Part shown: positions 17,877 through 27,100 of the stretch, in pieces
Position numbering within the stretch: the first letter of the stretch is position 1
Layout: each line of letters opens with the position of its first letter
Assembly (NCBI GenBank): GCA_040285745.1
Contig: JAUFOR010000002.1
Location: 992,001 to 1,056,000 of the forward strand
Origin: Barthelona sp. PCE
Lineage: Eukaryota
DNA length: 64,000 nucleotides
Reading direction: 5' to 3'
The notes under the pieces: generated by a model
Database searches by the model: none
What the model was told of the DNA's origin: nothing
Seen by the model: the letters and a program-made list of their open reading frames with translations, nothing else
Translations under genes and position numbers: made by a program

Positions 17877-18461
17877 ATGAGCGAAATTTCTATTTACAGA
17901 GCTCTTTTCAGTAACTACGAGAATGCACCAGTCACTAAAGCATTTTTTAGTACTTTAAACAACATGGACAGCTACATTACACCTTCTGTTCCTGAATTCA
18001 GCTTTTCAACTCCACAAGAGAGCGATTTAAAAACTGAGAATAATCATTTAAAGAAAGAAAACGAAAAATTAGAACAAGAAATCAGATTCATAAAAACGTT
18101 TCTCCATCACCAACTTAATATTCCTGAAGGAACATCCCAGGAAATGATGCGACATCTAAAGAATCAGCAGACCCATCATACACCCGTTGGGCATACCCAC
18201 GCTAAACGAAAACTGCGCCGAGTGAAAAAGATTATTGAACAGAAAGAACGAGCCAATCTATGCCCAATCTGTCTCTCCCATGCCAAAAACGCAATGTTGT
18301 TACCTAGCAGACAAACTGTATGTAACAGCTGCGCAACTGAACTCGTAAATAAGGGTATGAGAGATCCATTCACCAGATCACGAATCGAAAATGTTGTCTA
18401 TGATGCATTAAAGTTTCAAGAAAGCCCTGTTAGAACCAATTTGTTCAGTACACCAAGATAA
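17877..18461 (+). CDS. Coiled-coil protein with degenerate RING/U-box domain
   Basis: 'CPIC...LLPSRQTVCNSC...RDPFTRSRI'; AT-rich like the adjacent island. Confidence 0.7.
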   Translation: MSEISIYRALFSNYENAPVTKAFFSTLNNMDSYITPSVPEFSFSTPQESDLKTENNHLKKENEKLEQEIRFIKTFLHHQLNIPEGTSQEMMRHLKNQQTHHTPVGHTHAKRKLRRVKKIIEQKERANLCPICLSHAKNAMLLPSRQTVCNSCATELVNKGMRDPFTRSRIENVVYDALKFQESPVRTNLFSTPR

Positions 18462-18528
18462 TCAAAATAAAACTTATTCAACAAAGCTGAATAACAAAGA
18501 AGCAGAAAAAAAATCTTGAAGCATTACA

Positions 18529-18546
18529 TAAGGATGCACAAATGCT
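18529..18546 (+). repeat. Left TIR
   Basis: TAAGGATGCACAAATGCT, preceded by CATTACA at 18522-18528. Confidence 0.92.
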
Positions 18547-18738
18547 CTCTTTCTTAAAATGACAACACATGCTGAATATGCTAGTCACCAAAATGTACGG
18601 GTAGGTTTGATATTTATTAAGTCTGCTGCTAAAGCGTGTAAAATTGTTTCTTTCGTTTTTTAGGCAAAGATTTTCCAAATTCTCACGTTTCATATACCAG
18701 CTTTTCTTTATATGCACATTAAATCTCAGTAGATCAAC

Positions 18739-21700
18739 ATGTCAACGAAAATTCAGTTCATTGAACATGTTAATGATGATTTAAAAAAAATCTTGAAGCA
18801 CAAGAAAAAGTACGATAAAGTTACTCATGAAGAAGCTTTGTTAAAGAAAATTATGAATGATATCTGTGACGAAATTGAAAAAAGGAACCCAGTTGATGAA
18901 TTGCAAAAAAGTGCTTTAGAATTTTTCAAAAACCATATTGCAACCATGGAACCTGGCAATCGTGATGGTTTTTTACCAAGATCAGCAGTTACTCCATTTG
19001 GAAAGAATACCACCAAGCAAAGTCAAATTGGTTTGATTTATGTGGATTCCCGTGATTTCCATATAATAGCTGATGATCTCAACTTTTTTGTAACCCAGTT
19101 AGAAGGGCAGAGAAATGACATATTTGAGGGAAAGACGATTGTTAAGAACCTAAACTCAACCAAGATGGCACATTTACGTGATAGGTGTTATTCATGTAGA
19201 AATTACATCAATACAAAACTTATTAACAGATGGGATACGTTTAAAAAAAGTGTAATGAAGGTTTAGTGGATGAAAAGGACTTCATTTTTTGGATGAAAAG
19301 AATCAGAAATTCTATTAGTTCTAACATGGAATCAACCCATCTCTTCCAGCTTGATGGAAATTATGTGTTATGTAGTGAAAAATGGGAAGAAAAAATGTAT
19401 AAACTATCATTTAGAAAGATATTTGTCCCTGAGAAGTCCATTCCACCAGCTGGATGGCCCCGTACCTCACAATGGAGTCTGATAAACTTGAATATAAAGG
19501 ATAATAATCCGGAAAACAGAACATTACTTAATATAGAGCTTAAGAAACTCTTTATAGTAGGTTTTTGGATTATCATACAAGGTTCTTACGAAGCAATATT
19601 ACCAATCCAAATATCTAAGTATTTAGCAGAGTTAAATATGCATACTTATGTTGAAGCTGAATGTTACAATCAGTCTATTGATGCAATTTCTGATCTTTTA
19701 TGTTTTTCAAAGGCTGTTAAAAGGAAATATCAAATCACATCCCCTAAAAGATCATCCAAAAACATGAAATTGTTGCATTGTGCAGAGCAAGCTCGATATG
19801 TTTATTGCAAACAATTATGCAAGTCTATCGTTGAAGCAGGTCTTCCAGTGCATTTGATGTTGGATAAGTGGACACCTAACACTGTCAAAGATTCAATTAT
19901 GGCGATCATGATTAAGATACCAACTGAAACAAGAAGTTTCAATATTGATCACCCAATATTTTCGAATGCATTATTTATTTCCCATGATGACGTTACACCA
20001 ATTCATTATGGATATATTTTGCCCACTATTCGTAACAAATTTATTCTTTTAGACGTCCATTTTGATATGAAAGGTAAACATAATTACATTTTCAACGCAA
20101 TTATTTCCACTGTTTTCCGCTTTGGATTACATAAGGCTAAGCAGCTTTATTTCATTTCTGATCGTGGATTGCCTGAGTTAAAGGCGTTGAATTTTGTTGA
20201 AGAATATTTTAATGGAATTGGATCTGCAAAAGTTTTAATGGATATAATGATTGATAGCATCGTGAAACGTTATTCAAGTAACACTGATGCTGATCGCTTT
20301 AGTTCGCAGTTCAATGAGCATGATTATTTGGACATTGTATCGAGTACAGAGATTGTTTCAGAAAAAAAATTAAGGGAAATACTTTTGGAACACTACTTGC
20401 ACAATTACAAAGTTCCAGTTTTACCTTTTAATTGTATGTTCCATATGGTAAACAACTTTATCCGCTGCTTTGTACCTGTTATTACAATTGAAACAAGAGG
20501 GAATTACATGAGAGTGGAACCTGGAACTTTTCAAAAACAGTTTACAAAGCTTGTTAATTACTTTTCCATTCAGAAATGTGACATTATTTATAACACTGAA
20601 AGGAACAAATCACTTATACGTCTTATTGATTGTTTTTTGGGTGAATACTTTAACGTTTTAAAAACCCGCTCTGAGCAAGAAGCTGAAGAAAAAGGAATAC
20701 CAATGAAGGAAAAGCCCTACAGAAACATGAGCGCTACTCAAAAAAAAAAGGAAAAGAAAAGATGGAGCAATTCTCTAGAAGATAGAAAGCCTTATAAGTG
20801 GTATAATCGGGTTACCCAGAATAATTTCGATGATTTCTTTGAGGAAACATTGAATTTCAACATTGGATATTATGAAGAATCTGTTTTCGACGAAGCAATT
20901 AGGAGGGTACTTAAAAAAGATGAAAAGAAAGGATGGTACAAGGATTATGCATCGCATACGATTGTTCCAATTTATTTAGAGGATTTATTCGAGCATATTA
21001 GACAGCTTTTCATTGCAAACAAAGAACAGGTTGCCATTTTAAGAAGAGTGCTGCCTGTCTGGTCAAATTTATATGGAAAAACACGAGTCATTTTCCAGTT
21101 GTTTTTTGAGACTCTTTTTGAAGATTCTAGTAAGTTTAATGACAATTTTGCAAAGGCCTTTGCCATTACTGATATCTTTAAGCAGATTGAGAGCATTATT
21201 AACGATCCTGATGGAGATCCGCTTAATACGATTTACTGTTCCTTTACTGAAGATGAGCTGAGATGGGTTCTATTCTTCTGCTTCGTTGTAAGAAGGTTTA
21301 AGAAACTGTCTCTGCTAATTGAACAAGATAGTTTTACACTACAACAAGCAATTATTCAATTTCGTTCAATAATTAGAGATATTCAGGAATACGACATCTC
21401 AATGCCTAATTCTATTCCTATTATCGATAAGGAAGTGCCTGATATCATAGAAGAATCGCCATACTCAGATGGCTTACCCTCTTCTTTACTTACAATTATG
21501 TTTGATAATGTTAATGATACTAATACAATGCATAAAGATAAAGCTACAAGAATTAAGGCGAATCTGAAGCCAAGTTGCGTCAACGACTTGCATATTCATT
21601 CTGCAGTACGCTGTTGCATGCGTGGTTTTGAGGAAATGAAAGTGCAGGATGGTGAAAAAAATGTAATTGGCACTGTCAAATGTGATTCAGGAGCGAGTCT

Positions 21701-22220
21701 CGGCCTTCTTGAAGACGTCAAAACCCTTGTTATCACTGCGTTTGCGATGTATTTTGATAGATGTGCTAATAACAAATTTTTTTTCAAACAGTATATCGGA
21801 AGTGCACCCTTTTGGTTTGCAAAAGTTAGTAATAACGCGTTCATTGATTATTTATGCGAAGACCAACCAGAATTCCTTAATACACCCGCTACAACGTGTC
21901 CAGTTGAGCGCGTTTTTTCTCACTATGCATTTTTGGAGAGTCAAATGGGCAAGGCTACTTTACACGCTACTTTACGATTGAAAATGAGGCTCCACCGGTC
22001 ACTACATCATTGGGTGTGTATGGATTCAGCCCGAATATCCGACTATTCTGAACATGTTGACGAATTTAGGTTCAGGGAGTTGGAAGAGCTTGCCAGGAAG
22101 CGAACATCAAGTAATTTGTTTGATAATATAAAATCTGAATTCGATGATGATATACAACATTCTTTACTGCTTGAAAGTGATGATGAAAATGAAAGTGATG
22201 ATGAAAGTGGGTTGGAATAA
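18739..22220 (+). CDS. hAT-like transposase 1, split into two frames (18739-19266 and 19245-22220)
   Basis: D1 'HLMLDKWT', D2 'FISDRG', CxxH 'CMFH', 'PVWSN', C-terminal hAT dimerisation motif 'PATTCPVERVFS'; acidic tail. Confidence 0.8.
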
Positions 22221-22756
22221 TTTGATGGGGTATCATAGCTTTTTCACTTTCATGTTTGGAGGATCCAATTTTACTATTACTTGAACAATTGAATAGTATT
22301 TTATCTTCATGTGTTTTGACAATAATTGCACACCATATTCGATTCGAGTATATGTTGAAAATCCGTTTGACCTGTATCATTACCATTTGCAATGATAAAA
22401 CTCGCTGTAAACTCATTTGAATTTTTTCCTCCCTTTTACGTTTTTGCCATTCAACATTTACCATTGTAGGTTGGAGGATTTTGCACCGGGGCTATGTTTG
22501 TTGAGATGACGCATTGATTTTAGCATTCCGCATCATTTTTTCATAAAAATTTTTGTTTAAGAATTTACACAGTCTACGAAGTATGATCTATGATGGCAAG
22601 TTGATCTCATGTTGCCGAACTACACTTTTTTGTTCTTACAGTGTAAGCACAAAGAAAAAAAGTTGGAAATGTTTTCACCACAAGTAAAGAGAGTTTGTTA
22701 ATATAAACACCATATTCAATCTAACAGCAGTTTTTAGCTACTGTACAGAAACTACC

Positions 22757-22774
22757 AGCATTTGTGCATCCTTA
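22757..22774 (-). repeat. Right TIR
   Basis: AGCATTTGTGCATCCTTA, followed by CATTACA at 22775-22781. Confidence 0.92.
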
Positions 22775-24124
22775 CATTACAACTTTTTTATTGTTTGCAC
22801 TTTAAAGCTTTGACTTCGAGATATTGTATCGATTCTTCATCAGAAATCCTAAAATTAGCTGATTTAACGTATATAAAGAAGCAATATGTATATCGAGCAT
22901 TTTTTATGGATGTAAGTGAATGAATAATTTTTAATTACACCATAATAATGCATATTATACTAATAATATTCCATAAAATGAGAAGAAAAAAAATCTGAGT
23001 ACCATTACTACATTTAGTTTATTGTAATATAAACCATTTAAATACTTCTCAATTGATTTTGCTTACCTCCTTAATGTTTTTTGATTGCCTAATAAAAATT
23101 TTCTCAACGTTTACTTTATGTACAGATTTTTAAAAGATACAATCATTCATTGTACAAATAATTGTCTGTCAAATATACTTTTTATTAATGAATATAGGCA
23201 ATATATTAAAAGTGCAATTGAAAGAAATTTTCAGGAATGTTTTATCGATAATCCATTCACTATTCTCTCAATATAATCTGCCCACTATATCAAATCAATG
23301 TGTATGGATCAGGAAAAATGTTCCACCCTGTTTAATAAAAAAAGTTGATCAAACCCGGTATTAGACAATACATGACCAGAACATGGATTAAACACGAATC
23401 GAATATCTGTGAACGAGAGTACTGCAACTGTTAACAGATTGTACTTTGTGTAATTGTTTATGATATTAACCTTCTTTTGCCTGCACAAATCGCAACCTTC
23501 ATTAATACAGTTGATTGCAAGCAATGGTCATAAACACAAGCAGAAAAAAGCAAATAGTTGCTTTAGTGATATTGAAATATAGATTCACAGGCATTCATCT
23601 TTCTTGTTTTTAAGCGTATAGAACATGATATATAGACATTATACAGTACGATAAACTGCATGGAATGGATAAAACTGCATCAAAAAGATAACTTTTTTTT
23701 TTTCTCCTAATCGTTTTATATTACAGTATTTTTATGTGATTTCAGTGCATCTTTGATGGTTTTTAGGCCATATCTCGACTTTTGTTAAGGTTGAAGTTTG
23801 TAGTTATAGAATTTCAAGATTTATTTCTTGTTAAAGGTGAATCGGATAATGAAAATTCGCTGAACTTCCAAAATTTATTTAAAATTTATATCAGAGATGT
23901 AGGTTTGATTCCTACTTCGCCTATAAAATTTTTATTTTTTTTTCCACTCAGTAGCAAAGTTTTTTTAGACAAAGAATACTTGAAACTGTATCTCAACGCT
24001 TCTAAATTGAACTCTAAAGTGATAAAAAATGAAGATCTGATGTTGTTTTTTTTGCAACTTTTTGTTGAATGATGGAAGCATGTGGTTGACGGAACTCATG
24101 GCAGAGTGAATCTGTGACTCATGA

Positions 24125-27100
24125 ATGTGCTGTCCGAATTACGTCCTTTATCGTACATTCCGGATTTCTCTTTTTTACTATTTTTATGGGGTGGGATCTC
24201 AATTACCCGACCTCGATCTTAGGAACCATGATCAACCACCCCATAAAGTGGGTAGTGTAAAAACTGTAACAAACAAAGTAACGATTTGGAGTTCAGAAGT
24301 CAAAAATTCAATGTTATTACTATTCCATGAATTTAATGCTTCTAAGTACGCGTTATTAAATCACAAAGAGCTTTTGGATACTTATAACAAGATATCCAAC
24401 AAAGAAAATATCAAGATCCATCTGGTTCAGGATTCAATATTTCCACTTCTTTTCAAGCAATTATCACGGCAAAATCAGCAAATCACTCTGATGAAGGTAT
24501 CACCAGCTAAAGTTAATGCTGGTAGGGGCTTTGCTTTGCCATTTGTATTTTTAGCTATGGATAAAAGTTTGAAGAACATTAGATCTGAATACGGTCCAGG
24601 TTCTGAGATGGCTTTCAGGGATTACACAACATATTACGGTGAGGTTGTGCACCCTTACATTCTGGAAACCATTTTTAACTCTGCTTATGTTCAAGCAGCA
24701 AACAATTCAGAAAACGTAACTCTTTTTATGGAATTTGATCTGTCAAGCGATGTACGCAAAGATGATGCACTTATTATGTTGAAGGTACCAACCGATCTGG
24801 AACTTGTTTGGGTCGAGCATCCATTTTTGGAGAGCTCTACGAAAATGTACACAAAAAAGCATTTAATAATCACACTAGAGCAATATTTGGATTCTTTAAA
24901 AGGTAAGTTTATCATCTTTGATATATTTTCAACCGAGTTCACTGTTTCCCACGCAACTGAAGTTGTTATTAATCCTCTTGATTACCCAGATTTCACTGTG
25001 CGTAATTTTGTAGTACCTGAAATCAGCAAGGCGGAATACAAACGTGCTCAGGATCTGTGCGAACAGTTTTTGTCTCGGCTTAAAAAATACAAAATCATCC
25101 AGTCATATTCAATCATCGAGAGGAAAAACAGGGATCGCTGGTGCTTAGAAGATGTTATTATTGACATGGGTGATTCTGAAGTTAAGATTGTTGTTGGAAC
25201 TGATAATGGCACGCCAGAACAGCTCGCCTTTCAAAAGATATGTGATGCATGCTCGTCAATATCACGAGTTCCATGTGTTTGTCATGTTTTAAATAAGATT
25301 ATGGCAAAAACCAGTGGGTTTGAGTTCTTTCCTAGTCATATTCAGCATCAATCCTACAGTCCTCCTTATTTTGATAGTTTTAATTCGTTGAGAGTCTCCA
25401 ATGAAACCGTCACTATGGATATCATCGATCAAGTTTCACAAAATCCATTTGTTGAAGCGTTGTTTAAGAAGCTAGATTTATCAAATTTATTCACCAACCG
25501 TACCATTTCACGTTCTGCTGCTGCTCGACTTAACAGCGTTGTTTCTCTCCATGAAACTCATCCAATCTTTGCACTTTCTGAACCTGCAGCAGAGAATGAG
25601 AGTGTTACAGATGATATTTCTGGTGCAACTATCAACAATTTAACAGAAGAATGGATCGAGTCATTTGTTCATTCTGACAGTGATGTGGTTGAAGGTGGTT
25701 TGATTTCTGACGATAAGCTCATGTTTACCTTTGCATATACATCATTTCACGAATGTCAACACCTTGAAAACTTGTTAAGTCAGCGCAATGCTTGCCTGTT
25801 AGGCGTTGATTTGACCTTAAGTAACTCTCTTTCAAATGATGCCTATCGTTTCAATGTACTTGAGCATTATACTGAATTCATTGATCATCTTGCCATGATT
25901 TCTTTAGAGAAATATGCAAAAATGTTGGATGATCAGCAGAAATCTCTCGCCAATTTTTCAAAGATACAGACGCTGTTAACAGTTGATACTATGCGTGTGT
26001 TTTATAAATACCATACAGTCTGGTGTGAAGTAACGGGAAGATCCATATCTCTTTCGAATGTTCGTTGGGATACACTGGAATGGATTTATGATGTATTGTG
26101 TGGTGGACTGTACATGGACATCCCCAAGATACTATTTTTACCTGAGGGAACAGAAACAATTCCTGATGATTTTGCAATAACATGGTCTCATTTTGATATC
26201 ACTGATATGATTCTTCGTCTGAAGTACCACGAAGGTAAGGATTTGGAGATTAAGCGGATGTTAAAGAGCAATAATACTGTTTGTGACGAGGATCATTATC
26301 GGCATTTTCTTTCTCCTTTTTATGAGGCCATGAAGGATGGGAATAAGCAGCCTCATGGATTTTCTCTGGGCCCTGATATGTGGGTATTGGCAAGGAATTA
26401 TTTTTCTACTTATTCTCGTATGATCTTCATTCAACGTATGAGCAGTAAGAATGATTTTTCAGTTTTACAATCATATTTCCAAGTTTCCATTCTTTTGCAT
26501 GAATTGCGAAAGTGGCGCTCAGATTTAAGAATAGAAAATGCAACAAGCCTTGCTACAATATACCATGATGGTCTTTTTGAGTATGTTCGTCATTATTTTT
26601 GCAAATTCCTCATCATGCCCGAACCTTTAGTGGCTTTTCTTCTCTCAGATTTAAGCACTGTTGAGCTCCAGGATCATAATAAGGAGGTTAAAGATATCAC
26701 AAATGATAAACCCAGAAAGAGTTGTTTGAAGGAAGAATTATACCAACTGTATGTTGATGCAAAGATACCCAATATTAACAGAGGAGGTTTAGTTAAGGTT
26801 ACAGACAGGGAACTTGTAAGACTAAAAGGTATGATGGTTTTTTCATTTTTGCCCACCAAGTTCAAGCGCTGTGGAAGTGAATGTCCCGCATTACATCTTA
26901 TTAGTGATCACGTTTATGTTAATATGGCAAAAGATTTTAATGATCCTTTGTTGTATAGAGGGTTAGTGGGGTATATAATTTCGATTCTTTGTACCAATTA
27001 CTATTTAGACTTTTCACCATCCAATGAAGATCGAAAGAAGGTCGTAATGCGCTATACACCAGAAGTGGAACCCCAAACAATTGTATTACCATTATCGACA

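Follow-up and report, generated by a model that had tools for sequence, protein, structure and literature searches.

The DNA analysed here is a 64,000-nucleotide stretch of contig JAUFOR010000002.1 of Barthelona sp. PCE (the window), and the subject of this report is a DNA transposon of 4,246 bp that occupies positions 18529-22774 of its plus strand. The element opens with an 18-nt terminal inverted repeat (TIR), TAAGGATGCACAAATGCT, at 18529-18546 on the plus strand, which begins TAAGG, and it closes with the exact reverse complement of that sequence, on the minus strand at 22757-22774. Each TIR is bordered on its outer side by the heptamer CATTACA (18522-18528 on the left, 22775-22781 on the right), the target-site duplication (TSD). 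Between the TIRs are a 5' non-coding part of 192 bp (18547-18738, plus strand), a coding part, and a 3' non-coding part of 536 bp (22221-22756, plus strand). The coding part consists of two open reading frames (ORFs) in different frames, which together form a single transposase gene encoding about 1,160 amino acids (aa). With 34.1% G+C the element is poorer in these bases than the window as a whole (40.9%).

The TSDs were read directly and were also recovered by a blind scan, in which every combination of a left and a right end around the transposase ORF was scored for TIR and flanking repeat. The top candidate was the 18529/22774 pair, which matches at 14 of 14 nt and is flanked by a repeat of 7 bp; ranks two to four hold this pair again, displaced by one or two bases, and the fifth was an unrelated pair with three mismatches and a 3-bp repeat. 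A repeat search found the TIRs complementary at 18 of 18 nt (100%), with the inverted repeat stopping at that length. At up to three mismatches TAAGGATGCACAAATGCT occurs in only two places of the window, where shuffling gives an expectation of 0.04, and none of 100 shuffled windows contained two or more matches to the motif. Both copies of CATTACA are flush with the element, and the bases that follow outward are G on the left and A on the right, so that seven is the longest flush repeat and an 8-bp register is excluded. The earlier note, made from the letters of this DNA, had described perfect 18-bp TIRs flanked by CATTACA with no 8-bp duplication, on which repeat search, motif count and blind scan agree; its view of a fully delimited transposon that duplicated 7 bp of its target is likewise upheld by the flush TIR and TSD pair at the top of the scan. 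It is close to certain that 18529-22774 is a copy of a class II cut-and-paste transposon, and for this copy the 7-bp duplication is solid; from one copy, we infer a 7-base stagger as the rule of the family. The expected join of the flanks at an empty site is ...GAAGCATTACAACTTTT... Within the element the heptamer CATATTC occurs three times, at 18574 on the minus strand and at 22334 and 22711 on the plus strand, in the expected orientations, and is a candidate subterminal binding motif, though a very weak one.

The first ORF of the transposase gene (18739-19266, plus strand, 175 codons and a stop) corresponds exactly to the annotated protein P0003, and the second (19266-22220, plus strand, 984 codons) contains P0004 (964 aa) exactly, beginning 20 codons in. 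The frame breaks at a run of seven A (19243-19249, plus strand), as seen from the sequence and from alignment with two paralogous proteins, P0001 and P0005; by tblastn the second reading frame resumes from 19245. P0001 and P0005 read without interruption over this place as FKKKCNEGLVDEKDF (in a longer stretch, ...WDTFKKKCNEGLVDEKDF...), where the two frames of the window read ...WDTFKK and KCNEGLVDEKDF..., respectively. To encode the F-K-K-K-C-N-E-G of the paralogues over the break requires one base more than the window copy has, and its A-run is thus one base short relative to theirs. This difference may be a genuine mutation, or else an uncorrected homopolymer error, the region being repeated and the assembly made from long reads. 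As the gene is split at the run, the window copy itself is probably unable to make transposase.

The read-through window protein, with an X placed at the break, is 93.0% identical to P0001 (1,163 aa) and 96.9% identical to P0005 (1,171 aa, encoded on another contig), so that near-identical paralogues, known here as proteins, are present at no fewer than two other loci, on the same and on another contig. The other copies encode KAL0236823.1 and KAL0234793.1. More diverged are P0002 (1,127 aa, 42-43% identical to the window protein), P0007, a 69-aa fragment near-identical to the C-terminus of P0002, and P0006 (1,137 aa), which is 26-27% identical to the element's family (family 1) and is reached by profile at E 7.5e-72. 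The genome therefore holds at least three lineages: the window copy with P0001 and P0005, P0002 with P0007, and P0006. The protein cluster of P0001 has four members (P0001, P0005, P0003 of 175 aa and P0004 of 964 aa). All family members are annotated as Barthelona sp. PCE, and P0001 and P0002 are labelled "hypothetical protein". As TIRs and TSD are perfect and the frame break is the only lesion, the insertion looks young, if not brand new. The earlier note had called it recent, which is plausible given perfect ends, a single disabling lesion and a closest paralogue at 96.9% protein identity.

Searches of large sequence collections returned nothing related from any other organism. Among 5.8 billion protein clusters, two proteins were found at E≤0.001 out of 7,239 candidates (P0001 and P0002), and an exhaustive HMMER search of 1,835,955,588 representative proteins with a three-member full-length profile gave three at the same threshold (P0001, P0006 and P0007), with no relative outside the Barthelona genome. 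A profile of the C-terminal 136 residues, run against 5.8 billion proteins, recovered only three family proteins at E≤10 from 4,553 candidates. Of 316 pattern matches to the family-1 profile on metagenome contigs none was confirmed, nor was any of the 153 and 144 matches on viral contigs to the profiles of this family and of the second family described below. As far as the searched collections go, the family is confined to Barthelona sp. PCE, and to call it undescribed, as the earlier note did with some caution, is fair on the protein, metagenome and viral searches alike. Thirteen metagenome loci carrying the exact 18-nt TIR were rejected as chance matches. Each has one match without a second inverted copy, the best additional likeness to the element is 36 nt at 86%, and the best tblastn match has an E-value of 0.034; interior similarity above chance level and related ORFs were likewise absent.

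Three side observations concern the coding part and the left flank. A tandem 18-nt repeat (TGAAAGTGATGATGAAAA/G) is present at 22172-22207, in the acidic C-terminal tail of the transposase, and P0005 has a separate Lys/Glu-rich repeat expansion at a different place. The sequence AAAAAAAATCTTGAAGCA occurs twice, exactly: at 18506-18523, in the left flank and reaching the first two bases of the TSD, and at 18783-18800, in the transposase ORF. These copies, 277 bp apart, are the sole non-tandem exact direct repeat of at least 17 nt in the window; the ORF copy covers a codon for Lys at a site that is Glu in P0001 and P0005, and candidate origins are chance, filler DNA from an earlier repair, or short-patch conversion. 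The G+C content at third codon positions of the element is 0.32, the lowest listed, and overlaps that of several host ORFs at 0.32-0.35; this overlap makes codon composition uninformative about horizontal transfer, and that line was dropped.

Alignment of the four diverged members of family 1 shows the invariant motifs LM-x-D-x-W, F-x-x-D and P-A-x-x-x-P-x-E-R-x-F-S, which were read by eye. In the window they fall, all on the plus strand, at LMLDKWT (19854-19874, invariant in four of four members), YFISDRG (20148-20168, its Asp invariant in eight of eight sequences of this and the second family) and CPVERVFS (21897-21920, again invariant in all four), and they contain the putative catalytic residues: a first Asp (D379 of P0001), a second Asp (D478) and a Glu (E1060 of P0001). 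In a structural model of low confidence the first Asp ends strand beta-1, the second stands just after beta-4, the Glu opens a helix, and some 400 helical residues lie between the second Asp and the Glu. This predicted layout is compatible with an RNase H-like DDE (Asp-Asp-Glu) core into which an insertion domain is set, the arrangement known from Hermes, RAG1 and the P transposase (PMC8230255). From motif positions we would take D379, D478 and E1060 as the catalytic residues. The C-terminal P-A-x-x-x-P-x-E-R-x-F-S presumably resembles, at the level of the motif, the hAT C-terminal dimerisation region.

The superfamily to which these features point is hAT. Its elements have TIRs of 10-25 bp (PMC3942097, PMC3014272) and a terminal motif YARNG (PMC3014272); the TIR here is 18 bp and its TAAGG matches YARNG. 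Neighbours in the ESM Atlas, a language-model resource, agree. Pfam families linked to hAT (Dimer_Tnp_hAT, DUF659, hAT-like_RNase-H, and the ZBED1 or ZBED5 RNase-like families) appear in eight of the ten listed rows for P0001, with scores of 0.87-0.90, and in nine of ten for P0006, with scores of 0.84-0.86. No P, MULE, Kolobok or other transposase superfamily occurs in the listed rows for either protein.

A further line of evidence comes from a second transposase family, a copy of which stands beside the element. P0008 (24125-27511, plus strand, 1,128 aa), a family-2 hAT-like transposase gene, was found through a weak tblastn match, and has paralogues in the same genome: P0009 (1,227 aa, 94% identical), P0010 (1,247 aa, 92%; its cluster has four members) and P0011 (734 aa, 89%). 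P0008 is 5'-truncated, and the stretches that form residues 1-58 and 92-220 in P0009 and P0010 have no equivalent in it. No convincing TIR or TSD was found for this copy with left ends tried at 22782-24300 and 18440-18521, so that a second TSD measurement is unobtainable there. The motifs of P0008 include F-M-E-F-D, V-V-G-T-D-N-G and, 24 residues on, C-V-C-H-V-L-N; near the C-terminus it has S-N-S-G-V-E-H-G-F-S, and P0010 has V-E-R-E-F-S at the same point. The two families are 14-16% identical. Their full profiles align by hhalign from beta-1 to beta-3 with 75.5% probability (E 2.4e-5), rising to 92.6% (E 4.4e-7) for the sliced core, and MAFFT aligns the second Asp in eight of eight sequences of both families. 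DUF659 weakly matches the stretch of P0008 and P0009 that holds the second Asp and the C-x-x-H (E 0.095 and 0.11; 12.8 and 12.7 bits). DUF659 and Dimer_Tnp_hAT are found together in Atlas clusters, and the match, judged as the test of a single hypothesis set beforehand, says more than its E-value across the whole library suggests, although it is weak. Searches of the PDB with P0008 gave a proteasome subunit (E 0.69) and FCP5 (E 1.9), neither of them relevant, and the family-2 profile gave nothing.

A number of results weigh against placement in hAT. The TSD, known from a single copy, is 7 bp where 8 bp is typical of hAT (PMC3942097, PMC3014272), as the earlier note had correctly stated. No Pfam family reaches threshold in any member; the 984-aa ORF has no match at E≤1, and P0001, P0002, P0006 and the C-terminal 117 aa have no relevant one at E≤10. 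In particular the hAT dimerisation family PF05699 is absent at E≤10 from the three whole proteins and from the C-terminal 117 aa, and none of the hAT RNase H-type Pfam domains (DUF659, hAT-like_RNase-H, ZBED RNase-like) matches family 1. Neither a BED nor any other DNA-binding domain turned up, the N-terminal 340 residues carry no Pfam zinc finger, and conserved N-terminal Cys and His residues (C153, H201 and C212) form no recognised pattern. HMMER gives no link to known hAT proteins, with the profiles finding only proteins of Barthelona itself. A PDB search with the family-1 profile matched only a seed lipoxygenase (E 2.7, irrelevant), and the C-terminal profile matched nothing. Both AlphaFold models are unusable (mean predicted local distance difference test scores of 33.4 and 31.1), and Atlas scores below 0.9 count only as leads under the tool's own calibration. 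A possible C-x-x-H, FNCMFHM (20427-20447, plus strand), stands 91 residues past the second Asp, and its His is Tyr in P0006; for these two reasons it was left out as evidence. As for family 2, its DUF659 matches are far under the curated cut-off of 34.7 bits and are lacking in P0010 and P0011, two of the four family-2 proteins scanned, and the C-terminal motifs of both families are each other's best local match without being significant (E 0.12).

All of the indirect lines nevertheless agree and no rival superfamily leaves a trace, for which reason we regard a hAT-like nature as quite probable. The same label in the earlier note thus stands in so far as it rests on TAAGG, on motifs read by eye, on language-model neighbours and on the sub-threshold DUF659 match of family 2, and does not stand as a matter of Pfam or HMMER homology or of structural models. 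Probably the element works like a hAT transposon as a very divergent relative, and is not a member that could be filed there, since an 8-bp TSD and the Pfam dimerisation domain are lacking and a BED domain and hAT homology are undetected. The reading that we favour, with a probability of roughly 0.7, is that of a DDE transposon of autonomous type, belonging to a family found only in Barthelona that is a very distant and oversized member or sister of hAT. Both its hAT affinity and its activity at the present day would be part of this reading.

The length of the duplication is by itself not new. Named exceptions to the usual TSD length of hAT are hAT5 and hAT6 (Repbase Reports 2007, as cited in PMC12730594) and hAT7; the last, described in 2025, comprises families of the rust fungi Puccinia and Melampsora that have 7-bp TSDs, cluster with Ac/Tam3-type elements of fungi and plants, and have transposases classed by plain similarity to known hAT proteins (PMC12730594). 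Given hAT7, a 7-bp TSD in hAT is a rare published variant. The earlier note had confined such TSDs to minor groups such as hATw; this finds no support as worded, no relevant literature on hATw being among the matches listed.

The alternative that survives best, which we consider unlikely, is that the element is a cut-and-paste transposon of another superfamily with 7-bp TSDs (P-like Galileo, Dada, Kyakuja/KDZ or Mutator-like) or of an undescribed one, the hAT motifs being convergent or over-read. It draws on the same missing link to hAT at the level of profile searches, and on several features that are shared more widely: 7-base TSDs are reported for Galileo of the P superfamily (PMC2775673) and for Kyakuja (PMC12730594), and [C/D]-x-x-H is also part of the P signature and so is not specific to hAT (PMC8230255). 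A transposase of about 1,160 aa is moreover well above the 597-677 aa of Buster-type hAT (PMC12637253). Against it, Pfam gives neither THAP, P-element or MULE families nor those of any other transposase at E≤10, and Kyakuja families have 5'-CA..TG-3' termini and no TIRs (PMC12730594), unlike the 18-bp TIRs beginning TAAGG seen here. The Atlas rows, hAT-linked as given above, include none with a P, MULE or Kolobok family, and the sole transposase-related Pfam signal of family 2 is DUF659, the companion of Dimer_Tnp_hAT in Atlas clusters.

It is also rather improbable that the family normally makes an 8-bp TSD and that the window copy either lost a junction base or integrated atypically. The TSD was examined in one copy, the shorter A-run relative to the paralogues shows that small indels or homopolymer errors do occur in it, and the assembly is based on Nanopore reads with Illumina polishing (PMC11316075). 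Against this, the two TIRs and the two copies of CATTACA show no other defect, the junction bases lie outside any homopolymer, and a lost base would have to fall on one of a few positions within 4.2 kb. Lineages of hAT with fixed TSDs of 5, 6 and 7 bp exist (PMC12730594), so that a regular TSD of 7 bp is conceivable. Finally, it is highly improbable that an ordinary host gene merely lies between inverted repeats that arose by chance or through faulty assembly: DNA was seen for the window copy only, but an 18-nt motif expected 0.04 times is found exactly twice, inverted, and each time beside the same 7-mer, the encoded protein has near-identical paralogues at two or more other loci or contigs as well as diverged lineages, and the G+C content of the element is below that of most neighbouring genes. 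The divergent hAT-like transposon remains our preferred reading.

The metamonad Barthelona sp. PCE is marine and free-living, with a genome of 10.2 Mb that is reported as the smallest known of any free-living eukaryote (PMC11316075), and the compact protist genome surmised in the earlier note was a correct guess. The gene layout of the window, very dense, with many ORFs 3-80 bp apart and long ORFs without evident introns, is consistent with the reported size. To the left of the element is a RING-finger gene (17877-18461), the stop codon of which lies 60 bp before the insertion, and upstream of that gene is one with a SPRY domain. To the right is an A+T-rich spacer of 1,053 bp (22782-23834, about 30% G+C, no ORF of 150 aa or more), unusually long in a window where most spacers measure tens to a few hundred bases. 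Nothing in the spacer was found to resemble either transposon family; a tblastn match at 23824-24024, where the tRNA gene lies, is at chance level. That tRNA gene (23835-23923, plus strand) scores 38.8 bits in Rfam against a cut-off of 29, and ARAGORN makes no call. An insert of some 20 nt follows its anticodon loop, the loop itself by our reading suggesting an anticodon UCC (Gly), and the gene sits between the two transposon copies, 201 bp from the family-2 ORF. That two transposon copies and a tRNA gene share a single long spacer may point, as an impression from this locus alone, to sites where insertions are tolerated. A full-text literature search on Barthelona and transposons gave the genome paper alone, in which the three occurrences of the term concern Skoliomonas false positives and the title of a reference (PMC11316075); the passages searched there do not mention transposons of Barthelona itself.

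On the preferred reading, the transposase of about 1,160 aa would bind the 18-bp inverted ends, and probably subterminal DNA too, excise the element, and join its 3' ends to the target at cuts staggered by seven bases, the repair of which would leave the CATTACA duplication. The insertion would have been made 60 bp past the RING-finger gene, in a long spacer with a tRNA gene and a decayed family-2 copy, and the two paralogues with uninterrupted genes could mobilise the window copy in trans. A wider proposal, which we put forward tentatively and hold to be doubtful as a whole, is that both families belong to a lineage-restricted, divergent and oversized clade (1,130-1,250 aa, at least two families and four lineages) at the edge of hAT or beyond it, which has a fixed 7-base stagger, is still mobile, and has copies gathering in a rare long spacer beside a tRNA gene.

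How mobile elements survive strong genome reduction is a question on which DNA transposons that are multi-copy and nearly intact in so streamlined a genome have a bearing. A transposase family without a link to anything else among 1.84 billion representative proteins widens, for a deep branch of the eukaryotes, the sampled range of DDE transposases. Should the 7-base stagger prove to be the rule, it would stand beside fungal hAT7 as an independent case, in an unrelated lineage, that bears on target spacing in hAT-type transpososomes. For annotation it matters that the genes stand as "hypothetical protein" at present.

Of the known systems, the P superfamily shares with the element the 7-bp TSD, reported for Galileo (PMC2775673), and a DDE core that is broken by an inserted domain bearing [C/D]-x-x-H (PMC8230255). 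It differs in its termini, and in that the Barthelona proteins show no THAP or P-element Pfam signal at E≤10 and no P-type Atlas neighbour. Barthelona family 2 is alike in its host genome, its size (1,227-1,247 aa when complete), its homologous beta-1 to beta-3 core, the aligned second Asp and an E-R/H-x-F-S motif at the C-terminus; unlike family 1 it has a C-x-x-H that is conventionally placed (GTDNG, with CVCH 24 residues on) and a weak DUF659 match. With the hAT superfamily (hobo/Ac/Tam3; Ac, Buster and Tip) the element shares a length within 2.5-5 kb, a single transposase gene, short TIRs, a YARNG terminus and, as predicted here, a D...D...E order in which the Glu is preceded by a very long run of helices. 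It departs from hAT in its 7-bp TSD, in a transposase of about 1,160 aa where Buster-type proteins have some 600-700 (PMC12637253), and in the lack of BED, Dimer_Tnp_hAT and hAT RNase-H Pfam matches and of any HMMER-detectable relative. The 7-bp duplication is common to hAT7, which was compared by description only; there the host is a fungus and not a metamonad, the Barthelona protein has no plain similarity to known hAT proteins, and the Barthelona element carries no TET/JBP passenger gene. The Barthelona element is hAT-like, new, oversized and restricted to its lineage, and it has duplicated 7 bp of its target; the type of system that it represents is one already known.

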